Positions 11,726-18,900 of a stretch of 64,000 nucleotides of DNA are shown here, piece by piece; within the stretch, counting starts at the first letter, position 1, and each line of letters begins with the position of its first letter. The notes beneath the pieces are model-generated. The model had not been told where the DNA came from and made no database searches. It worked only from the letters and a program-made list of their open reading frames with translations. Source of the DNA: an uncultured Clostridia bacterium. GTDB lineage: Bacteria > Bacillota > Clostridia > TANB77 > CAG-508. The translations under genes and the position numbers were made by a program. The DNA is taken from positions 21,231-85,230 of the forward strand of contig CALXUS010000004.1 in assembly GCA_944391745.1 (NCBI GenBank). Direction: 5' to 3'.

Positions 11726-11838
11726 AAAAAAAGCAAGACCCATTTAAGAATTTATTTCTTAAAAGTCTTGCTCACCATAAAGGTCACTAACCAGATTTCT
11801 CTTGTTGTTGATTAGTTATTTATGAGCTACTCCCTTTT
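11726..11838 (-). promoter_or_regulatory. yybP-ykoY (Mn2+) riboswitch-like leader with intrinsic terminator
   Basis: Minus-strand RNA is AAAAGGGAGUAGCUCAUAAA...UUUAUGGUGAGCAAGACUUUU. It matches the conserved GGGAGUAG and AGCAAGAC blocks with closing helix AAAAG/CUUUU. GCAAGAC is shared with a downstream hairpin GCAAGAC...GUCUUGC plus U7. Confidence 0.6.
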
Positions 11839-11895
11839 TGTTTTTATTATTTTATCAAACTGAATTTTAAAATTCAAGGGGTTATTTGTTTTTTA

Positions 11896-12537
11896 TTAAT
11901 AATATATAGAAATATCAATTCCATTAAAGAAAGTATTATCCGCTAGTAATTTCATACAACTATATTCTATAATTAGCATTACGCACACTATAGCACAACT
12001 CAAAGTTATGTATTTTTGTATTGTTGACAATTTCTTATATTTAATCTTTTGATAAATCATTATAATTCCTAGAATAATAAGGCAAATAAGTAAAATTAGT
12101 AAAAGTCCATAGCATGCTTCTACTGTAAAATAACTTATCGGTTCTCCTGACCCTCCTAAATATACAGACCTTGTTTTTCCAAATATCAAAGCAACCATAT
12201 TAGGCAAAATAATCGAAAATATCATTAATAATATGCATATTATCAAAATAATTTTTGAAACTTTGCTTACTTTATTATTTGTTTTCTTTTGATATACCAT
12301 TGCAATAAAATTTGTGACCATTACGTTTATAGTTATAAATAAAATTGTTATAGCAATATACACTGATGTATAATATTCTTCCGTGCTAGTATTTATTTCT
12401 CTCACATTTGCAGTAGGAATTTGCGGTTGATCGGTTGCTAATACAATTGCATTTTTCAAAATGCTTATTAAAAATGTTATGATAAATATTTTATATAGTA
12501 TTTTAAATATTTTTATGCTTTTTTTATAATTAAACAT
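11896..12537 (-). CDS. Hypothetical multi-pass membrane protein
   Basis: 213-aa ORF with several hydrophobic segments. Confidence 0.6.
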   Translation of the reverse strand: MFNYKKSIKIFKILYKIFIITFLISILKNAIVLATDQPQIPTANVREINTSTEEYYTSVYIAITILFITINVMVTNFIAMVYQKKTNNKVSKVSKIILIICILLMIFSIILPNMVALIFGKTRSVYLGGSGEPISYFTVEACYGLLLILLICLIILGIIMIYQKIKYKKLSTIQKYITLSCAIVCVMLIIEYSCMKLLADNTFFNGIDISIYY

Positions 12538-12619
12538 CTTGCATCTCCTTTATTTTTTATAATTATATACAATACGAATTATTTTTTCAATGTATCTAGA
12601 AATTTTTTTACTTTAATAC

Positions 12620-12645
12620 GCCCGGTAGTCAAAAGACTACCGGGC
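12620..12645 (-). terminator. GC-rich hairpin downstream of the HNH gene
   Basis: GCCCGGTAGTC-AAAA-GACTACCGGGC, an 11-bp perfect stem with a weak U-tract. Confidence 0.5.
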
Positions 12646-12660
12646 AAATAGTGAGAAAAA

Positions 12661-13386
12661 TCACTTACCTAACACGTGAGAAGTATAATCAACTATTCCG
12701 TCATAAATCACATTTTCCAACTTAATGACATCAATCTTTCTTACCCCTTCTATTTTCATAAAAAGTATAGAATTGAAACCATCAAGCAGGAATTTATTTG
12801 CACTTACAACTATTGGATATGGAATTCTTTTATATTTTCTATAGAATCTAGCAATTCTGTTGTATACTGTTCCTATCGGGTCCTCTAACCTAAAATTTAC
12901 ATACACGGATTTGTGATTTCCTTGTTCTAACCATTCCTCTGGAAGAGATGGCAATTCGCCAAATCTCCTTTTGGTTTGGGTTAAACTTAATTCTTCATTG
13001 AAATCTTTCACCTCTGCTTTTCTTTCTCGACCTTTTGTTGATTTTACAATATGTTGAAACTTTTCAAATTCGTTTGGATACATACTACCTTTTTTACGGT
13101 TGCAAACACTACAGCAAGGTCTTAAGTTGTTGGTAATACTAACACCACCAAATTCTCTAGGTATAAGGTGGTCTAAGGATTTCCATAGTACTCCGTCTTG
13201 TTTTTCTTTGTCTTCTATACCTGTAATAGGCTTTTGGCAATAATAGCAGACGTGGCCATGTAGGATGTACGTCAATTCAAACATCGTTTCTTCAAACATA
13301 TTCCGATGCAAGTAAAGAATTCCGTCTTTTACCTCTCCTTTCTCATCACTAAGAATAATGTGCTCTTTTGGTAATTCGATAATCAT
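12661..13386 (-). CDS. HNH endonuclease with C-terminal ParB/Srx-like segment
   Basis: CYYC...DHLIPREFGG...NLRPCCSVCNRKKG (HNH/Zn). The C-terminal PIVVSANKFLLDGFNSILFMKIEG resembles a ParB-like nuclease core. G+C looks richer than the neighbours, and there is one in-frame CGG. Confidence 0.75.
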   Translation of the reverse strand: MIIELPKEHIILSDEKGEVKDGILYLHRNMFEETMFELTYILHGHVCYYCQKPITGIEDKEKQDGVLWKSLDHLIPREFGGVSITNNLRPCCSVCNRKKGSMYPNEFEKFQHIVKSTKGRERKAEVKDFNEELSLTQTKRRFGELPSLPEEWLEQGNHKSVYVNFRLEDPIGTVYNRIARFYRKYKRIPYPIVVSANKFLLDGFNSILFMKIEGVRKIDVIKLENVIYDGIVDYTSHVLGK

Positions 13387-13593
13387 TGTCTCACCTCATA
13401 ACAAATTATTGTATTGATTGAAACAACATTGCTTAAATGAATTCTATCATAATAAATTTTTAGTTGTAAATAGTTTAAATACTTTTTATTTTTTCAATAT
13501 TTATATAGTCAAAGTAATTTACTTATATTTACTTTCATTTCAGTTTATAATATAATTAAACTGAAATTATAGGTGTTAAAGGAGAAATGCTCA

Positions 13594-14388
13594 ATGATTA
13601 TCAAAGATGAGATAGGAAAAATTCTTCCTATTAAGGATTTATCTAATTTATTTGTTGTAGCTGATTTTGATAGAACAATAACAAATGGCAGTAGTAAAAC
13701 TTCATGGTCTATTTTATCTGAAAGTCCACTTGTTCCAAAAGAATATAAAAAGGAAAGACAAGGATTTTATGACTATTACAGGCCTATTGAAGTTGATGAA
13801 TCATTAGATTATGAATACAAAGCTTCTAAGATGAAGGAATGGTACCAAAAGCATATTGGATTATTTGTTAAATACAAAATCACTGAAGAAATTTTTAATA
13901 ATGCTGCTACTGATTTACGAATAATGGAATTTAGACCAGGTGCTAAAGAATTTATTGAATTTTTACATGATAATAATATCCCATTAATTATTATTAGCGC
14001 AGGAATTGGAAATTTTATTGAGGCCTTTCTTACTTTGAATGGTTGCTACTATGATAATATTTATGTTAGTAGTAACAAAATTATTTTTAAAGACGGAATC
14101 GCTGTTGGTGTAGATACTAATATTATTCATAGCTTAAATAAAAATGAGGTTTCTTTGCCTGATAATATAAAAGAAAAATTAAGTAATAGGAAAAATGTTT
14201 TACTACTAGGTGACCAAATTAGTGATTTAAGAATGGTTGATAAATCTAAACATGACCATGTTTATACTAATTGCTTCTTATGTGATGAAAACAAGTCTGA
14301 ATTAGAAGCTATTAGAAAGCAATTTGATATTGTTTGTGAAATTGGAGATAATTATTTTGATTTGAAGAAAGTATTGTTTTCTGAATAA
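13594..14388 (+). CDS. Pyrimidine 5'-nucleotidase-like HAD hydrolase (UMPH-1 / cN-III family)
   Basis: DFDRTIT (DxDxT), YRPIEVDESL, KMKEWYQKH, IPLIIISAGIGNFIE, LLLGDQISDLRMVD. ATG at 13594 sits 9 nt after AAGGAG; the track ORF starts at GTG 13573. Confidence 0.7.
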   Translation: MIIKDEIGKILPIKDLSNLFVVADFDRTITNGSSKTSWSILSESPLVPKEYKKERQGFYDYYRPIEVDESLDYEYKASKMKEWYQKHIGLFVKYKITEEIFNNAATDLRIMEFRPGAKEFIEFLHDNNIPLIIISAGIGNFIEAFLTLNGCYYDNIYVSSNKIIFKDGIAVGVDTNIIHSLNKNEVSLPDNIKEKLSNRKNVLLLGDQISDLRMVDKSKHDHVYTNCFLCDENKSELEAIRKQFDIVCEIGDNYFDLKKVLFSE

Positions 14389-14432
14389 CAAGCGAAAGAG
14401 CTAATTGTAAATTACAATTAGTTCTTTTTTAG

Positions 14433-15386
14433 CTACAATTCCACCTTCCATTTTGGTGGATACATATATTCTATTTTAGATGTTTTAGGTATATACTTCT
14501 TTTTGATTTTTTTCCTATTAGATTTTAACTCTGGAAGTGCTTGCCTACAATATTTGTCTAATTCACAGAAAATATTTTGGCAATCTATTAGCTGAAGCTC
14601 TCGATTTCCTATTCTTTTAAAATTCAAATTTAATCTTTTAAATTCTTTGTCTTGGTTTTCATACATATATTTTATAATATCTTCATTACTCATATTTTCT
14701 TTGTCAATAAAACACTTATTTATTCCTCTTAATGAACCGGGTCCTGCTACTGTAAATTTATTTTCTTTCCAATCAACTACTTCACTATAATTAATATCTG
14801 TTACTAATTGATATGCCATAAAATCTCCAATTAGCGGATATGATTTTATAATTTCAAAAGCCTCATTCATATTTTTGCATTCTAAAATTTTATTTTGCAT
14901 TTTGTCTTCTAAGAACATTTTTTGTAGTAAAGCCAAATGATTATCATGTTTTCTATCAAAGCCAAATGCTTTATTGGCACATGATATATATGCATCATTA
15001 TATATTTTTATCCCATTGGATATAGCCTTTTCTAATACTTCTGAGTATGTTTTTATATTGAAAATTTTTAATGTAGGGTCTCCTATGTTTTCTAACAATA
15101 ATTCCCATGTTTGCTCTTTGTTAAATAATTTGAATAGTATTATTCTAAAAATGGTATCATTATTATCATAGCGTTTTCCGTTATATATTACATTTTTCAA
15201 TAAATATTGACTTACTCTATCATTCACTCTATAACTATTACAAAACTTGTATTCCTGCAAAATTTTATCTTTTGTCCATGGTGGTTCTTTACCTTCGAGT
15301 TTGCGCCAAAATATATTTTGTCTTTCACAAGCGAAATACCAATATAAGTCATAAACTTCTTGTCTTTTTTTCATTTTATACCTCAT
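14433..15386 (-). CDS. Protein resembling the helical domain family of phage thymidine-hypermodification enzymes (5-hmdU DNA kinase helical domain / aGPT-pyrophosphorylase-like)
   Basis: The N-terminal pattern VYDLYWYFACERQNIFWRKLEGKEPPWTKDKILQEYKFCNSYRVNDRVSQYL matches my recollection of that family. This is unverified. The start abuts the radical SAM stop. Confidence 0.5.
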   Translation of the reverse strand: MRYKMKKRQEVYDLYWYFACERQNIFWRKLEGKEPPWTKDKILQEYKFCNSYRVNDRVSQYLLKNVIYNGKRYDNNDTIFRIILFKLFNKEQTWELLLENIGDPTLKIFNIKTYSEVLEKAISNGIKIYNDAYISCANKAFGFDRKHDNHLALLQKMFLEDKMQNKILECKNMNEAFEIIKSYPLIGDFMAYQLVTDINYSEVVDWKENKFTVAGPGSLRGINKCFIDKENMSNEDIIKYMYENQDKEFKRLNLNFKRIGNRELQLIDCQNIFCELDKYCRQALPELKSNRKKIKKKYIPKTSKIEYMYPPKWKVEL

Positions 15387-16418
15387 TTAATTTGTTTTCA
15401 TACATTTAGGGTCTTTTGAATTAACGCATCTTTTTAAATTTGTGTATTTATCTTCATTTTTATTATATCCTGCAATTATTTTTTGACCAATACAACCACT
15501 CTTACAAATTTCATAGTCTTTGCATAATTTACAACTATTTTCTGTATTTAATTTTCTTAATAATTTAAAGTATTCTGAATTATATATTTCTTTTAGTGTA
15601 TTTTCTTTAATATTCCCACTAACACCTAATTTTGTGAAATATTTTATAGAATCACATGGATATGCAATACCATCAAATCCAATTATCATAATTTCATCCG
15701 CAATAATGCAAGGACTATTTTTTATATTTAATATATTCCAAGGACTTCCTAATCTTATTTTGTCTTTGTATTTTGATTCTAAGTAAAATTCTTTTATTTG
15801 ATTCAATTCTTCTTTTGTTAAGTCCATATTTTTACTGCCTTTACCGTGTGGAACAAATCTAAGTAAGCTAATTTTTTCAAAATATTTCCTGTAATAAAAT
15901 TCTTTCATTGTTGCATTTACTATTGTCTGCATTTGTGAAATTGAGTCTTTTGAAATTGTATAATGAAATCCTAATTTACAATTTGAAGTTTTTAATAATT
16001 TATCAAAAAATTCTATATGTGTGTATGTTGAAGAATCTTTTTGGTTTGATAAGCTGTCTGCTAGCGAATATATTATTTTATTTAATCCACTGTCAATAAG
16101 TTTTTTATATTTATTTAAGTTTTCATCATTCCTATAATCAAATGTATAAATTGCAGAATTGATTTTTAATTCTTTTGTTATTTTAATTAAATCATTTAAT
16201 TTTTCATATTTTAGTGGTTCTCCTCCTGTAAATACTACATCAGTAACATTTATTTGCTTCGCTTCTAGTATTATTTTCTTTACATCTTCATATTCTAACT
16301 CTTTAATATTTTTAGAATTACTAGTAGCACTACTTGAACAATGTATGCAGTTTCTTGAGCATCTATTAGTTAATTCTATTTTTAATTCTTTTAGCATAAT
16401 TATCTCCCTGATATTCAT
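15387..16418 (-). CDS. Radical SAM protein with C-terminal SPASM/twitch-like Cys cluster
   Basis: CSRNCIHC (CX3CX2C), GGEPL, and C-terminal CKLCKDYEICKSGCIG. Confidence 0.85.
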   Translation of the reverse strand: MNIREIIMLKELKIELTNRCSRNCIHCSSSATSNSKNIKELEYEDVKKIILEAKQINVTDVVFTGGEPLKYEKLNDLIKITKELKINSAIYTFDYRNDENLNKYKKLIDSGLNKIIYSLADSLSNQKDSSTYTHIEFFDKLLKTSNCKLGFHYTISKDSISQMQTIVNATMKEFYYRKYFEKISLLRFVPHGKGSKNMDLTKEELNQIKEFYLESKYKDKIRLGSPWNILNIKNSPCIIADEIMIIGFDGIAYPCDSIKYFTKLGVSGNIKENTLKEIYNSEYFKLLRKLNTENSCKLCKDYEICKSGCIGQKIIAGYNKNEDKYTNLKRCVNSKDPKCMKTN

Positions 16419-16527
16419 TTACAATAATTTTATATTATTTTATTTATAATTTCAACATAAATCTATTTTAAAAAGTAATAATATCTTGATTTAAAATATT
16501 TTTTATACTATAATATATTTGTTTTAT

Positions 16528-16603
16528 GCCACTATAGCTCAGTTGGTAGAGCAACAGATTCGTAACCTGTAGGTCGCGAGTTCGATTCTCGCTGGTGGCT
16601 CCA
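16528..16603 (+). tRNA. tRNA-Thr (anticodon CGT)
   Basis: GCCACTATAGCTCAGTTGGTAGAGCA-ACAGA-TTCGTAA-CCTGT-AGGTC-GCGAGTTCGATTCTCGC-TGGTGGCTCCA. Confidence 0.9.
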
Positions 16604-16624
16604 TTTGAATATTATTTTTTATGG

Positions 16625-16655
16625 GCTGTTTTTGGGGACACCTTCCAAAAACAGC
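16625..16655. repeat. 31-nt palindromic repeat element, copy 1 (GCTGTTTTTGGGGACACCTTCCAAAAACAGC)
   Basis: 11-bp arms GCTGTTTTTGG/CCAAAAACAGC around GGACACCTT. It probably also terminates tRNA-Thr transcription. Confidence 0.85.
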
Positions 16656-16731
16656 TTCGCATTATTAAAATAGTATTTTTGTTTATCTTTTATAGATATT
16701 AAAAATACTTCTATATTTGAGGAGTAATGCC

Positions 16732-17184
16732 ATGATATTTTTTTTTATAATTTTAATAGCAATATTTGTATTAGTATTACGTGCAGCAAAATCCAAAAAA
16801 AATATAAAAATTAGTTGTCTAATCATTGTATTAATAAACTTATTTTTTATTGTATTTTCTAGATTTTTATGGCCTGGAGTAACGCATTATGCTGAACTTA
16901 TATTTTCTTTTTGGATTATTCTAATTGTTAATTTTGTCTTACTATTAATTTTATTTATTTCAAAAATAAAATTAAATTTGAAATTAATGATTATCATACT
17001 TGCTGTCTTTTTCCTACTTATGCTTTTTACGCCAGTATATAAATTTGAAAATCATGAACATACAATTATAAATGGTCATGAAGCTATTAGATCTTATACT
17101 GAATATTATAATTGCTATGGGATAAAATTGAGAGAAATAAATAATTCACAGAATATATATAATTACAATATAATATTGAAATAA
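16732..17184 (+). CDS. Hypothetical small membrane protein
   Basis: ATG at 16732 lies 7 nt after GAGGAG. There are three or four hydrophobic segments. The ORF is bracketed by inverted repeat copies 1 and 2. Confidence 0.6.
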   Translation: MIFFFIILIAIFVLVLRAAKSKKNIKISCLIIVLINLFFIVFSRFLWPGVTHYAELIFSFWIILIVNFVLLLILFISKIKLNLKLMIIILAVFFLLMLFTPVYKFENHEHTIINGHEAIRSYTEYYNCYGIKLREINNSQNIYNYNIILK

Positions 17185-17204
17185 ATTCTATATATTTTAT
17201 TTAA

Positions 17205-17235
17205 GCTGTTTTTGGAAGGTGTCCCCAAAAACAGC
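17205..17235. repeat. 31-nt palindromic repeat element, copy 2 (exact reverse complement of copy 1)
   Basis: GCTGTTTTTGGAAGGTGTCCCCAAAAACAGC, located between the convergent ORF 16732..17184 and sufU. Confidence 0.85.
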
Positions 17236-17243
17236 TTTATAAA

Positions 17244-17669
17244 TTACTTCATCATTCTCCTCATTGTTTCCCATGCTAAACTAGCACACTTTATTCTTGC
17301 TGGCAACTTTGTAATATTTTTCAAGTACTTAGCATCACCTAACATCTTGAGCTCCGCTTCTTCTACATTTTCTCCATTTATCATTTTTAAAAAAATATCT
17401 ATTAATTTTATTGCTTCTTCTTTTGATTTTCCTTTTAACAAATCTATCATAATAGATGCTGAAGCCTGAGATATTGCACATCCATATCCTGAATATGATA
17501 AATTTTTTATTATATTTACGTCAAACTTTATTTCAAGCGTAATGTCATCTCCACAACTTGGATTGTGTCCATGCTCTTCTCTATCTTTTTCAAATAAGTT
17601 ATGTTTGTTTTTTGTGCTTATACTGTGTTCCATTATAATATTTGTATAGATTTCTTCTAAATCATCCAT
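17244..17669 (-). CDS. sufU: SUF system Fe-S cluster scaffold SufU/NifU-like
   Basis: NPSCGDDITL, GYGCAISQASASIM, PARIKCASLAWE. Confidence 0.9.
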   Translation of the reverse strand: MDDLEEIYTNIIMEHSISTKNKHNLFEKDREEHGHNPSCGDDITLEIKFDVNIIKNLSYSGYGCAISQASASIMIDLLKGKSKEEAIKLIDIFLKMINGENVEEAELKMLGDAKYLKNITKLPARIKCASLAWETMRRMMK

Positions 17670-17688: not shown

Positions 17689-18900
17689 CTACCTTATCCA
17701 CTTTGCAAATAATTTTTTAGTTTTATACAAACCATCTATAAGTCTATCTACATCTTCTTTTGTATTATATATATAAAAGCTTACCCTACATGTTGATTCT
17801 ATTCCCATAAATCTAAGTAATGGTTGTGCACAATGATTTCCAGACCTAATACATACATTCTCACTATCTAATACACTTGCTACATCATGGGGATGTACGC
17901 CATTAACATTAAACGAGATAACGCCAGCATGTTTATTTGTTAAGCCATATATTGTAATAAAAGCTAGTTTTTGTAATTCTTGTAAAGTATATGATGTTAG
18001 TTCTTTTTCTAAGGTTTGTACTTTATCCATTCCAATATTATTCAAATAATCTATTGCGGCAGATAGACCAACAGCTCCTTCTACATTCTGGGTTCCTGCT
18101 TCGTATTTTGCAGGTATTTCAGCATAAGTGGCATTTTGTTCATAAACATATTCTATCATGTCTCCACCATATAAAAATGGGTTCATTTTTTCTAATAGCT
18201 CTCTTTTAGCATATAGTACACCTATACCTAATGGTGCTAACATCTTATGTCCTGAAAAAGCCAAAAAATCTGCATCTAATTTTTGAACATCTACTTTAAG
18301 ATGAGGAACACTTTGTGTTGCATCAACTATAACAATAGCCCCTACACTATGTGCTCTTTTTATTATTTTTTCTATTGGATTTATTGTTCCAAGTACATTT
18401 GATACATGTGTTATCCCAACGATTTTGGTTTCTGTGTCTATTTTTCTATTAATTTCTTCATCTGTTATCTCTCCTTCTTCATTTATATACATATATTCTA
18501 TTTTGCTACCTGTATTTTTAGAAACATATTGCCATGGAACTAAATTTGAATGATGTTCCATTATGGATAATACAATTTTATCTTTTTCACATAAATTATT
18601 TAATCCATAACTATATGCAACTATATTTAAACTTTCTGTAGCATTTTTTGTAAATATTATTTGTTTTTCACTTTTACTATTAATGAATTTCGCTACTTTT
18701 TTCCTTGCATCATCATACAATTTTGTAGATTCTAAGCTTAATTTGTATGCTCCCCTATGTGGATTTGCATTGTATTTTTTATAATAATTGTTAATGGCGT
18801 TTATTACTTGAAGTGGTTTCTGCGCCGTAGCTGCACTGTCCAAATAAGAGATATTATTTTCTAGTAATATTGGGAAATCTTTTTTATATAAATTATCCAT
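17689..18900 (-). CDS. sufS: Cysteine desulfurase SufS (class V aminotransferase)
   Basis: LDSAATAQKP, FSGHKM (PLP Lys), RSGNHCAQPL (active-site Cys). Confidence 0.92.
   Translation of the reverse strand: MDNLYKKDFPILLENNISYLDSAATAQKPLQVINAINNYYKKYNANPHRGAYKLSLESTKLYDDARKKVAKFINSKSEKQIIFTKNATESLNIVAYSYGLNNLCEKDKIVLSIMEHHSNLVPWQYVSKNTGSKIEYMYINEEGEITDEEINRKIDTETKIVGITHVSNVLGTINPIEKIIKRAHSVGAIVIVDATQSVPHLKVDVQKLDADFLAFSGHKMLAPLGIGVLYAKRELLEKMNPFLYGGDMIEYVYEQNATYAEIPAKYEAGTQNVEGAVGLSAAIDYLNNIGMDKVQTLEKELTSYTLQELQKLAFITIYGLTNKHAGVISFNVNGVHPHDVASVLDSENVCIRSGNHCAQPLLRFMGIESTCRVSFYIYNTKEDVDRLIDGLYKTKKLFAKWIR

Follow-up and report, generated by a model that had tools for sequence, protein, structure and literature searches.

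Two kinds of described systems are closest to the locus analyzed here. In phage thymidine hypermodification, a kinase and an enzyme of aGPT-Pplase clade 2 were sufficient in reconstitutions, and gp55 of phage M6 was dispensable; M6 gp53, encoded beside genes of the HMUDK_hel and ADDT families, is a radical SAM glycinyl-thymine isomerase resembling spore photoproduct lyase (PMC8989533). It is the only radical SAM enzyme shown to install a DNA modification. The other system is NTTI/DS-4 of Escherichia coli, found by DefensePredictor and experimentally validated as anti-phage, which consists of a thymidylate synthase (TS)-like protein, a kinase, a standalone HMUDK_hel protein, a TIR protein and Nmad2 (PMC13092281). 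We found no literature on the pairing of HMUDK_hel with a radical SAM/SPASM enzyme, nor on bacterial standalone HMUDK_hel proteins besides the NTTI entry. Such a pair is encoded in the stretch of DNA studied here, a 64-kb window of contig CALXUS010000004.1 (AT-rich, GC ~26%), in the numbering of which all features are given.

An earlier note on this DNA described a neighborhood of four genes and a tRNA-Thr concerned with nucleotide or DNA modification. Its four open reading frames (ORFs) and tRNA-Thr(CGT), at 16528..16603, were recovered at the same positions. Here we show that the observation is real but narrower than it was put: the radical SAM and HMUDK_hel genes form a two-gene operon, widely conserved in uncultured gut Bacilli, which is a minimal form of a known kind of system. 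Adjacency beyond chance is confined to these two genes.

Conservation of the gene pair

The first gene of the operon (15387..16418, minus strand) encodes the radical SAM/SPASM enzyme, listed as an ORF of 343 amino acids (aa), and the second (14433..15386, minus strand) encodes the standalone HMUDK_hel protein, listed as 317 aa. The two ORFs abut, as previously noted, but alignments of homologues point to the second ATG of each as the likely true start. These are M8 of the radical SAM gene at 16397, preceded by AGGGAG, which gives 336 aa, and M5 of the HMUDK_hel gene at 15374, which gives 313 aa (MKKRQE...). Homologues of the radical SAM enzyme are 334-336 aa long and begin with MLKE(V/L)KIEL. 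Each revised start follows a Shine-Dalgarno sequence, and the two genes are then separated by a 12-nucleotide (nt) spacer carrying that of HMUDK_hel, GAGG.

The neighborhood survey covered 80 species-representative loci with a close HMUDK_hel homologue, from at least 285 species genomes, 72 of them informative for the radical SAM gene; an independent survey covered gut metagenome loci. The pair proved to be conserved as neighbors, with the radical SAM gene immediately upstream of HMUDK_hel in 39 of the 72 species loci and in 11 of 23 metagenome loci. The gap between the genes is 1-4 nt in 29 of the 39 paired loci, and the ribosome-binding GAGG of paired loci lies inside the final radical SAM codons. 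No other neighbor of HMUDK_hel is conserved across the surveyed loci.

HMUDK_hel genes without a radical SAM gene at the locus itself are denoted solo. Truncated radical SAM remnants occur upstream of several solo genes. In the tree, paired HMUDK_hel proteins are interspersed among solo ones, and no residue discriminates between the two. From the interleaved tree and the remnants, the radical SAM gene was evidently lost repeatedly, with HMUDK_hel retained.

In cassettes from soil and freshwater, members of a related radical SAM subfamily are encoded beside distant HMUDK_hel homologues, with the genes ordered differently; the enzymes of four such cassettes share the motifs LLRFVP(H/Q)G(K/R)G and PC...PC(D/E)..K with those of the gut clade. 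That one radical SAM subfamily accompanies HMUDK_hel in very distant bacteria, in either order, is good evidence for functional coupling.

One metagenome-assembled genome (MAG), CALXCA01, contains two pairs on different contigs (L033, contig 4; L045, contig 2), which reflects either a duplication or a mixed-strain bin.

Selection and genomic context

The MAGs with the closest loci, all from uncultured gut bacteria, are labeled Bacilli, Tenericutes or 'Clostridium sp. CAG'. Within this gut clade, HMUDK_hel is 81-90% identical, whereas the other shared neighbor genes are mostly 30-70% identical. The median dN/dS of HMUDK_hel is 0.09 at a median dS of ~1, compared to 0.21 at a median dS of 0.67 for the radical SAM gene, and to 0.25-0.29 (medians) at a dS of 0.8 for two neighboring housekeeping-type genes. 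Because dS is ~1, the high identity of HMUDK_hel reflects strong purifying selection following an old divergence, and recent horizontal gene transfer was rejected as its source. The pattern resembles that of a core gene and is unlike that of typical defense genes.

A close relative of HMUDK_hel was found on 1 of 2.9 million viral contigs. A prophage origin of the pair was rejected. The context is chromosomal and includes a P-type ATPase and IscU/SufS genes. No TS-like, MazG, dCTP-deaminase-like or Nmad2 protein was detected by tblastn in the whole 64-kb window (best TS-like match, E=0.4), and there is no P-loop kinase domain in the HMUDK_hel protein or in the products of the adjoining genes, the radical SAM enzyme and a HAD hydrolase. 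The earlier remark that neither a kinase nor an hmU-forming enzyme is encoded at the locus holds. With no kinase or hydroxymethylase, and a close relative on only one viral contig, 'chromosomal' and 'stripped-down', as the locus had been called, describe it fairly.

The HMUDK_hel protein

The product of 14433..15386 belongs to the HMUDK_hel family and not to an unrelated one. It matches PF18723 with E=4.4e-107 and 358.1 bits (cutoff 25), residues 10-288 aligning with profile positions 2-280 of 281, and this is its sole domain. The resemblance pointed to in the earlier note was to the right family, but it extends over the whole protein and is not limited to the N-terminus. The family comprises 4,271 clusters at 50% identity (E<=1e-3). 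No match was found in PADLOC or NCBIfam, and a sequence search against the PDB returned nothing at E<=1. In depositors' annotations, the label 'clade 1' is given to a protein homologous to that of the window and 'clade 2' to one homologous to gp46 of phage PaMx11, so that HMUDK_hel apparently corresponds to the old aGPT-Pplase clade 1.

The AlphaFold2 model of the protein (pLDDT 94.4) is all-alpha, with a predicted helix-hairpin-helix (HhH) at residues 173-199 (helices 173-181 and 188-199). In a Foldseek search of the PDB, the weak top matches are almost exclusively HhH DNA glycosylases (Ogg, AlkA and Mag). The HhH-like motif, KSYPLIGDFMAYQLVTDINY (14787..14846, minus strand), includes G187, F189, Q193, D197 and Y200, conserved at 97-99%.

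Conservation was assessed over 150 diverse representatives, to which PaMx11 gp50 and the NTTI protein were aligned; 130-150 of the representatives cover each position given here. R22, R53, D56, E275 and K278 are conserved at 100%, and Q193, D197, Y200 and C274 at 99%. All the family-invariant residues are present in the window protein, among them also G215, G217, G221, D268 and P310 (each 99-100%). The putative active-site motif, FCELDKY (14550..14570, minus strand), contains C274 (99%), E275 (100%) and K278 (100%), conserved superfamily-wide.

ADDT (PF18724) was compared with HMUDK_hel as a family alignment built for profile-profile comparison in hhalign, which gave E=2.9e-4 at a probability of 40%. 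In this alignment, C274 is paired with the invariant Cys of ADDT (C247 of the ADDT alignment), with E275 adjacent, and the HhH-like motif with the ADDT motif FGPWIGFK.AD; at the same 40% probability, the position of ADDT E243 is occupied by Q270 in the window protein. The comparison with a single ADDT sequence (gp46) was insignificant (probability 4%), and the ADDT Pfam family did not match HMUDK_hel at E<=0.1. Mutation of the Cys or of a nearby Glu abolishes the activity of M6 gp51 and ViI gp247 (PMC8989533). Together, the alignment of C274 with the ADDT Cys and these mutant data suggest that HMUDK_hel is a Cys-dependent pyrimidine enzyme rather than a passive domain, and an enzyme it probably is. 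If M6 gp55 is the clade-1 gene, the Pfam name describes position, not function.

The radical SAM/SPASM enzyme

The earlier assignment of 15387..16418 to the radical SAM/SPASM enzymes is corroborated by a CX3CX2C motif and by Pfam matches to Radical_SAM (2.4e-14) and SPASM (8e-10). The motif, CSRNCIHC, spans residues 20-27 (16338..16361, minus strand), and its cysteines C20, C24 and C27 are invariant in the radical SAM alignments; the GGE motif, G65-G66-E67, follows. The SPASM auxiliary-cluster region (15492..15710, minus strand) shows the full 7-Cys pattern and reads C237...G-x4-C255 and C296-x2-C299-x5-C305-x3-C309, with further cysteines at 331 and 339. The distant cassette-type enzymes too have C237, C255, C296 and C299 without exception; within the gut clade, C305 and C309 are conserved as well. 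The enzyme is expected to bind three [4Fe-4S] clusters and is encoded near Fe-S assembly genes: ~0.8 kb away lie IscU-like (17244-17669) and SufS-like (17689-18900) genes, both named by eye. This proximity is probably coincidental, because only L001 and L005, two loci of the window's own group, show the arrangement.

The cluster motif begins at residue 20, leaving no N-terminal RiPP (a peptide made on ribosomes, then modified post-translationally) recognition element. None of the NCBIfam equivalogs, including PqqE, MftC, anSME, AhbD, NirJ and the sactisynthases, reached its cutoff, the best being PqqE with 68 bits against a cutoff of 381. The best sequence match in the PDB has E=5e-9, and weak matches to pVip (viperin) were found with PADLOC. 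Structural neighbors include peptide-modifying enzymes (SuiB, PqqE, SkfB, EpeE and anSME) as well as enzymes acting on nucleosides or nucleotides (BlsE, BtrN, DesII, viperin and MoaA), a mixture that made assignment of the substrate from the fold uninformative. A search for RiPP precursors gave no conserved small ORF next to the pair; the best candidate occurs in 5 of 39 loci and looks spurious.

Relatives in phages and in regulated cassettes

PaMx11 gp50 is an HMUDK_hel protein (5.6e-41); its gene sits in the thymidine-hypermodification cluster, with that of the P-loop kinase gp49 on one side and that of the TS-like gp51 on the other. The characterized transferase, PaMx11 gp46, is an ADDT protein (1.6e-27), a member of a distinct Pfam family. 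By synteny with PaMx11 gp50, M6 gp55 is probably a member of HMUDK_hel (clade 1). PaMx11 gp49 (L081, 3348-3917), a probable 5-hydroxymethyldeoxyuridine (5-hmdU) DNA kinase, is annotated as 'terminase small subunit', and the same label is attached to PHROG phrog_800 although the C-terminal half of the latter matches HMUDK_hel, likely a propagated misannotation.

Domains fused to HMUDK_hel include Thymidylate_kin-like P-loop kinases, MazG/MazG_C, MT-A70, GT1, Chromo and NADAR. Two HMUDK_hel proteins are fused to Chromo, and one each to NADAR, MT-A70, GT1 and DUF4326. Chromo domains read eukaryotic chromatin, and these fusions hint that the family has eukaryotic or chromatin-linked members.

The nearest relatives of HMUDK_hel outside the gut clade, at 42-55% identity, are encoded on contigs from soil, peat and freshwater. 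There, the gene belongs to cassettes with the order XRE-HTH, ImmA/IrrE protease, a 272-aa protein, HMUDK_hel with or without a kinase, and a variable last gene encoding MazG/MazG_C, a TS-like protein, a radical SAM/SPASM enzyme, a dCTP-deaminase-like protein, ThsB-TIR or Nmad2; full cassettes were seen in L119-L161. The 272-aa protein is a member of the TS superfamily: its profile matches CMP 5-hydroxymethylase (E=8e-6).

Five metagenomic loci (L126, L129, L141, L121 and L152) encode XRE-HTH, ImmA/IrrE, a MilA-like TS-superfamily protein, HMUDK_hel and a radical SAM/SPASM enzyme, which in some of them is twitch-like, with only 4 auxiliary cysteines. We found no description of this radical SAM version of NTTI-like systems.

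Operon boundaries and neighboring genes

The operon probably extends from a promoter near 16430-16455 to a hairpin at 14395-14427. The candidate promoter (16427..16455, minus strand) is a promoter-like site, TTGAAA-17-TAAAAT, that matches 10 of 12 consensus positions ~30 nt upstream of the probable radical SAM start; it is a pattern match, of a kind that this AT-rich region does not contain in excess over shuffles. Between the convergent stops of the HMUDK_hel and HAD genes lies an AT-rich 14-bp hairpin (14395..14427), probably a bidirectional terminator, with a deltaG of -12.1 kcal/mol (z=-3.4; 1 of 200 shuffles folds equally well). A GC-based terminator scan passed over it, and it is missing, along with the HAD gene, in L001.

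The HAD gene (13573..14388, plus strand) encodes a HAD-IE/UMPH-1-like putative pyrimidine 5'-nucleotidase. The likeness to UMPH-1 pointed out before is borne out by Pfam (E=4.3e-47, 161 bits, cutoff 23.7); against the HAD-IE equivalog TIGR01544, the protein scores 141.9, under the cutoff of 256.95. Its DxDxT motif reads DFDRT. Beyond it lies an HNH endonuclease gene (12661..13386, minus strand) whose HNH_5 domain scores 34 bits (cutoff 27.5). The ParB-like tail ascribed to this protein found no support: residues 105-241 match no ParB family even at E<=10, and the C-terminal half is without a family. The GC content of the HNH region (0.32-0.34) is indeed above that of the immediate flanks (0.25-0.27) but within the range of other window genes, such as the P-type ATPase (0.35-0.38).

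The window's own group consists of loci L001-L005, with HMUDK_hel ~95% identical. The HAD gene was seen only in L002, L003 and L005, and both HAD and HNH are absent from 75 of the 80 species loci, that is, all those outside L001-L005, and from all 30 metagenome loci. Even within the group, L001 shows a clean 948-bp absence of the HAD segment (window 13477-14424; L001 6954-6958), in L005 1.1 kb of unrelated sequence is inserted between the operon and HAD (L005 6951-8070), and L002 and L003 lack the adjoining membrane-protein gene (window 11899-12616). With HAD and HNH confined to this polymorphic group, the four-gene neighborhood is a local accident.

The L005 insertion contains a 338-aa ORF, a Gfo/Idh/MocA-type oxidoreductase by eye. 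On the other side, the stretch 16622-17244, with a 155-aa TTG-start ORF (16717-17184), is unmatched in L001 and L005. The module is flanked by an indel hotspot, in which HAD, the L005 insertion, the membrane gene and the stretch with the 155-aa ORF are all variable.

The segment containing HNH and a 213-aa membrane ORF (11896-12537), at window 11728-13476, is 98.5-98.8% identical at the nucleotide level to L001 and L005, compared to 95-96% for the adjacent module and 84-90% for the IscU/SufS genes. The higher identity and slightly higher GC content suggest recent exchange or mobility, and the segment is probably recently exchanged or mobile, in the manner of homing endonucleases.

The tRNA-Thr(CGT) gene (16528..16603, plus strand) is divergent from the operon. 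The tRNAs beside the module vary by lineage (Gly-TCC, Thr-CGT, Thr-GGT, Arg, His or none), and a specific link with tRNA-Thr was rejected on these grounds. By eye, about a quarter of 60 related loci have a tRNA within ~1.5 kb of the module, most commonly Gly(TCC) just downstream of HMUDK_hel, in paired and solo loci alike; the recurrent proximity may mark an ancestral position or a recombination hotspot. The placement of HAD, HNH and tRNA-Thr in one system with the pair, as the earlier note had it, is contradicted by the absence of HAD and HNH outside L001-L005, the lack of HAD in L001 and the varying tRNA identity: they are local neighbors outside the module.

Possible functions of the pair

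From the operon structure, conservation, family membership, purifying selection, invariant residues and cassette ancestry, we infer, tentatively and with somewhat less than even confidence, a self-contained module that modifies or processes pyrimidine bases, with HMUDK_hel as core enzyme and the radical SAM/SPASM enzyme as accessory, derived from inducible cassettes. HMUDK_hel, as an all-alpha protein similar to HhH glycosylases, would extrude a pyrimidine base from DNA; Cys274, with Glu275 and Lys278, would attack C6 of the pyrimidine and so enable chemistry at C5 or at the C5 substituent, on the model of the mechanism shown for the paralogous amino-acid:DNA transferases. The co-translated radical SAM/SPASM enzyme would carry out a radical step on the same base or its substituent and would be dispensable in many lineages. 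The pair would be a stripped-down, vertically inherited descendant of the inducible cassettes (XRE, ImmA, TS-like hydroxymethylase, HMUDK_hel with or without a kinase, then radical SAM, MazG or TS), behaving in the gut lineage as a constitutive housekeeping-type gene. The fusions to MT-A70, GT1, Chromo, NADAR and P-loop kinases, together with the phage hypermodification clusters, point to a DNA-directed context, and a pyrimidine base in DNA is the favored substrate.

Several points weigh against this interpretation. SPASM enzymes mostly modify peptides or proteins. No activity has been reported for any HMUDK_hel protein; the Foldseek matches to glycosylases are insignificant (best E=0.4; TM scores 0.3-0.5), and homology of HMUDK_hel with ADDT has only moderate support. 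The window encodes neither a source of 5-hydroxymethyl-pyrimidine nor a kinase, which leaves the natural substrate undefined, and the TS-like and dNMP-kinase partners in the related cassettes would suit free nucleotides equally well. The loss of the radical SAM gene in solo genomes was judged from the locus alone, and a defense role is compatible with strong conservation. Finally, M6 gp55, the inferred HMUDK_hel member, is dispensable in vitro (PMC8989533).

A more specific version of the same interpretation, in which the pair is an oxygen-independent installer or processor of a non-canonical pyrimidine in the cell's own DNA, the radical SAM enzyme replacing the hydroxymethylase-plus-kinase route of phages, appears improbable on present evidence. 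One possibility would be a radical-generated C5-substituted thymine or uracil, with HMUDK_hel providing base flipping and Cys-C6 catalysis; if so, 'clade 1' would have in HMUDK_hel its first enzyme of assigned activity. As it stands, the finding is not evidence for a new DNA modification.

Among the alternatives, an anti-phage module, a minimal relative of NTTI, is possible but rather unlikely: HMUDK_hel, assisted by the radical SAM enzyme, would recognize and damage or de-modify invading 5-hydroxymethylated or hypermodified phage DNA, or make a toxic nucleotide analogue. The validation of NTTI/DS-4 as anti-phage (PMC13092281), with an HMUDK_hel protein 31% identical to that of the window, argues for this, as do the distant homologues in XRE/ImmA-regulated cassettes with ThsB-TIR, MazG and Nmad2, the weak pVip (viperin) matches of the radical SAM enzyme, and the indel hotspot downstream of the module with its mobile-looking HNH gene. 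However, HMUDK_hel has a dN/dS of 0.09 and an old divergence, is carried by no fewer than 285 species genomes, of one lineage, is syntenic within the genus, and is left unchanged by repeated loss of the radical SAM gene. It has no PADLOC match and no recurrent defense-gene neighbors, and the locus lacks regulators, an effector (TIR, MazG or Nmad2), TS and a kinase. We consider it less likely still that the two enzymes act on pyrimidine mononucleotides or nucleosides, as a free-nucleotide pool or salvage pair in salvage-dependent organisms. The partners of the family (TS-superfamily hydroxymethylases, Thymidylate_kin-like kinases, MazG and dCTP-deaminase-like proteins), the presence of BlsE, viperin and MoaA among the structural neighbors of the radical SAM enzyme, and the UMPH-1-like nucleotidase that adjoins the pair in the window lineage are consistent with such a role, but this nucleotidase is not a conserved neighbor of the pair, the HhH-like architecture and the MT-A70, Chromo and GT1 fusions suggest polymer substrates, and the characterized ADDT paralogues and 5-hmdU DNA kinases work on DNA (PMC8989533).

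Maturation of a peptide or protein, in which the SPASM enzyme would modify a small precursor peptide or HMUDK_hel itself, is very unlikely. The best NCBIfam and Foldseek likenesses of the radical SAM enzyme include PqqE, the mycofactocin maturase, SuiB, SkfB, EpeE and anSME, and its gene is tightly translationally coupled to HMUDK_hel; yet all the curated maturase families score under their cutoffs, the enzyme has no N-terminal recognition element, the best small-ORF candidate (5 of 39 loci) looks spurious, and paired and solo HMUDK_hel proteins show no distinguishing residue. The view that the radical SAM enzyme, HMUDK_hel, HAD, HNH and tRNA-Thr make up one nucleotide-, DNA- or tRNA-modification neighborhood is largely refuted, and we give it hardly any weight. 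In its favor, the genes adjoin one another in the window, Pfam gives each a nucleic-acid or nucleotide flavor, and the synteny is kept in L002, L003 and L005. Opposed to this are the 75 of 80 species loci and 30 of 30 metagenome loci without HAD and HNH, the interruptions of the arrangement in L001 (no HAD) and L005 (1.1-kb insertion), the divergence level of the HNH segment, which is unlike that of its flanks, the lineage-dependent tRNA identity, and the terminator hairpin that parts the convergent units.

Comparison with known systems

The favored interpretation, a pyrimidine-base module built on HMUDK_hel, can be set against four described relatives. The phage clade-1 proteins (PaMx11 gp50 and, probably, M6 gp55 and ViI gp160) resemble the window protein in Pfam family, in being standalone proteins of ~300 aa, and in the invariant motifs, the C-E dyad among them, but are only 25-30% identical to it. 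Their genes adjoin those for a 5-hmdU DNA kinase, a dUMP hydroxymethylase and an ADDT transferase, none of which is encoded in the window. From the phage thymidine-hypermodification set (hydroxymethylase, 5-hmdU DNA kinase, ADDT and tailoring enzymes), the locus has only HMUDK_hel, accompanied by an unrelated type of radical SAM enzyme. The ADDT proteins (PF18724, aGPT-Pplase clade 2; PaMx11 gp46/PUGT, M6 gp51 and YuA Pplase2) are suggested remote homologues of HMUDK_hel, which makes a common mechanism, thiolate attack on C6 of the pyrimidine, plausible. PUGT is not among the top 50 Foldseek matches listed for the window protein, and ADDT requires 5-phosphomethyl-deoxyuridine made by a kinase for which there is no counterpart in the window.

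The HMUDK_hel protein of NTTI, WP_087900470.1, has 340 aa and shares 31% identity with that of the window (E=1e-32), and the NTTI cassette is of the type found in the outgroup relatives of the latter. NTTI lacks a radical SAM enzyme, whereas the window holds only the radical SAM enzyme and HMUDK_hel, evolving like a core gene; the window shares with NTTI/DS-4-type cassettes HMUDK_hel alone, with no TS-like protein, kinase, effector, XRE or ImmA/IrrE. If HMUDK_hel were defensive after all, it would represent the minimal effector core of NTTI-like systems.

The window radical SAM enzyme is of the SPASM/twitch type, with SuiB, PqqE, BlsE and BtrN as its nearest structures, unlike M6 gp53, and the two are independent recruitments of radical chemistry. 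If the pair modifies DNA, it would be the second, independently recruited radical SAM enzyme in DNA base modification, possibly producing a novel base in gut bacterial genomes. The invariant Cys-Glu dyad provides a hypothesis open to direct test, and the two-gene form, free of kinase, hydroxymethylase and regulators, is the simplest context for learning what the domain does. HMUDK_hel is found in three settings: the thymidine-hypermodification clusters of phages, a validated defense system of E. coli and, as a near-core gene, a widespread lineage of uncultured Bacilli in the human and animal gut.

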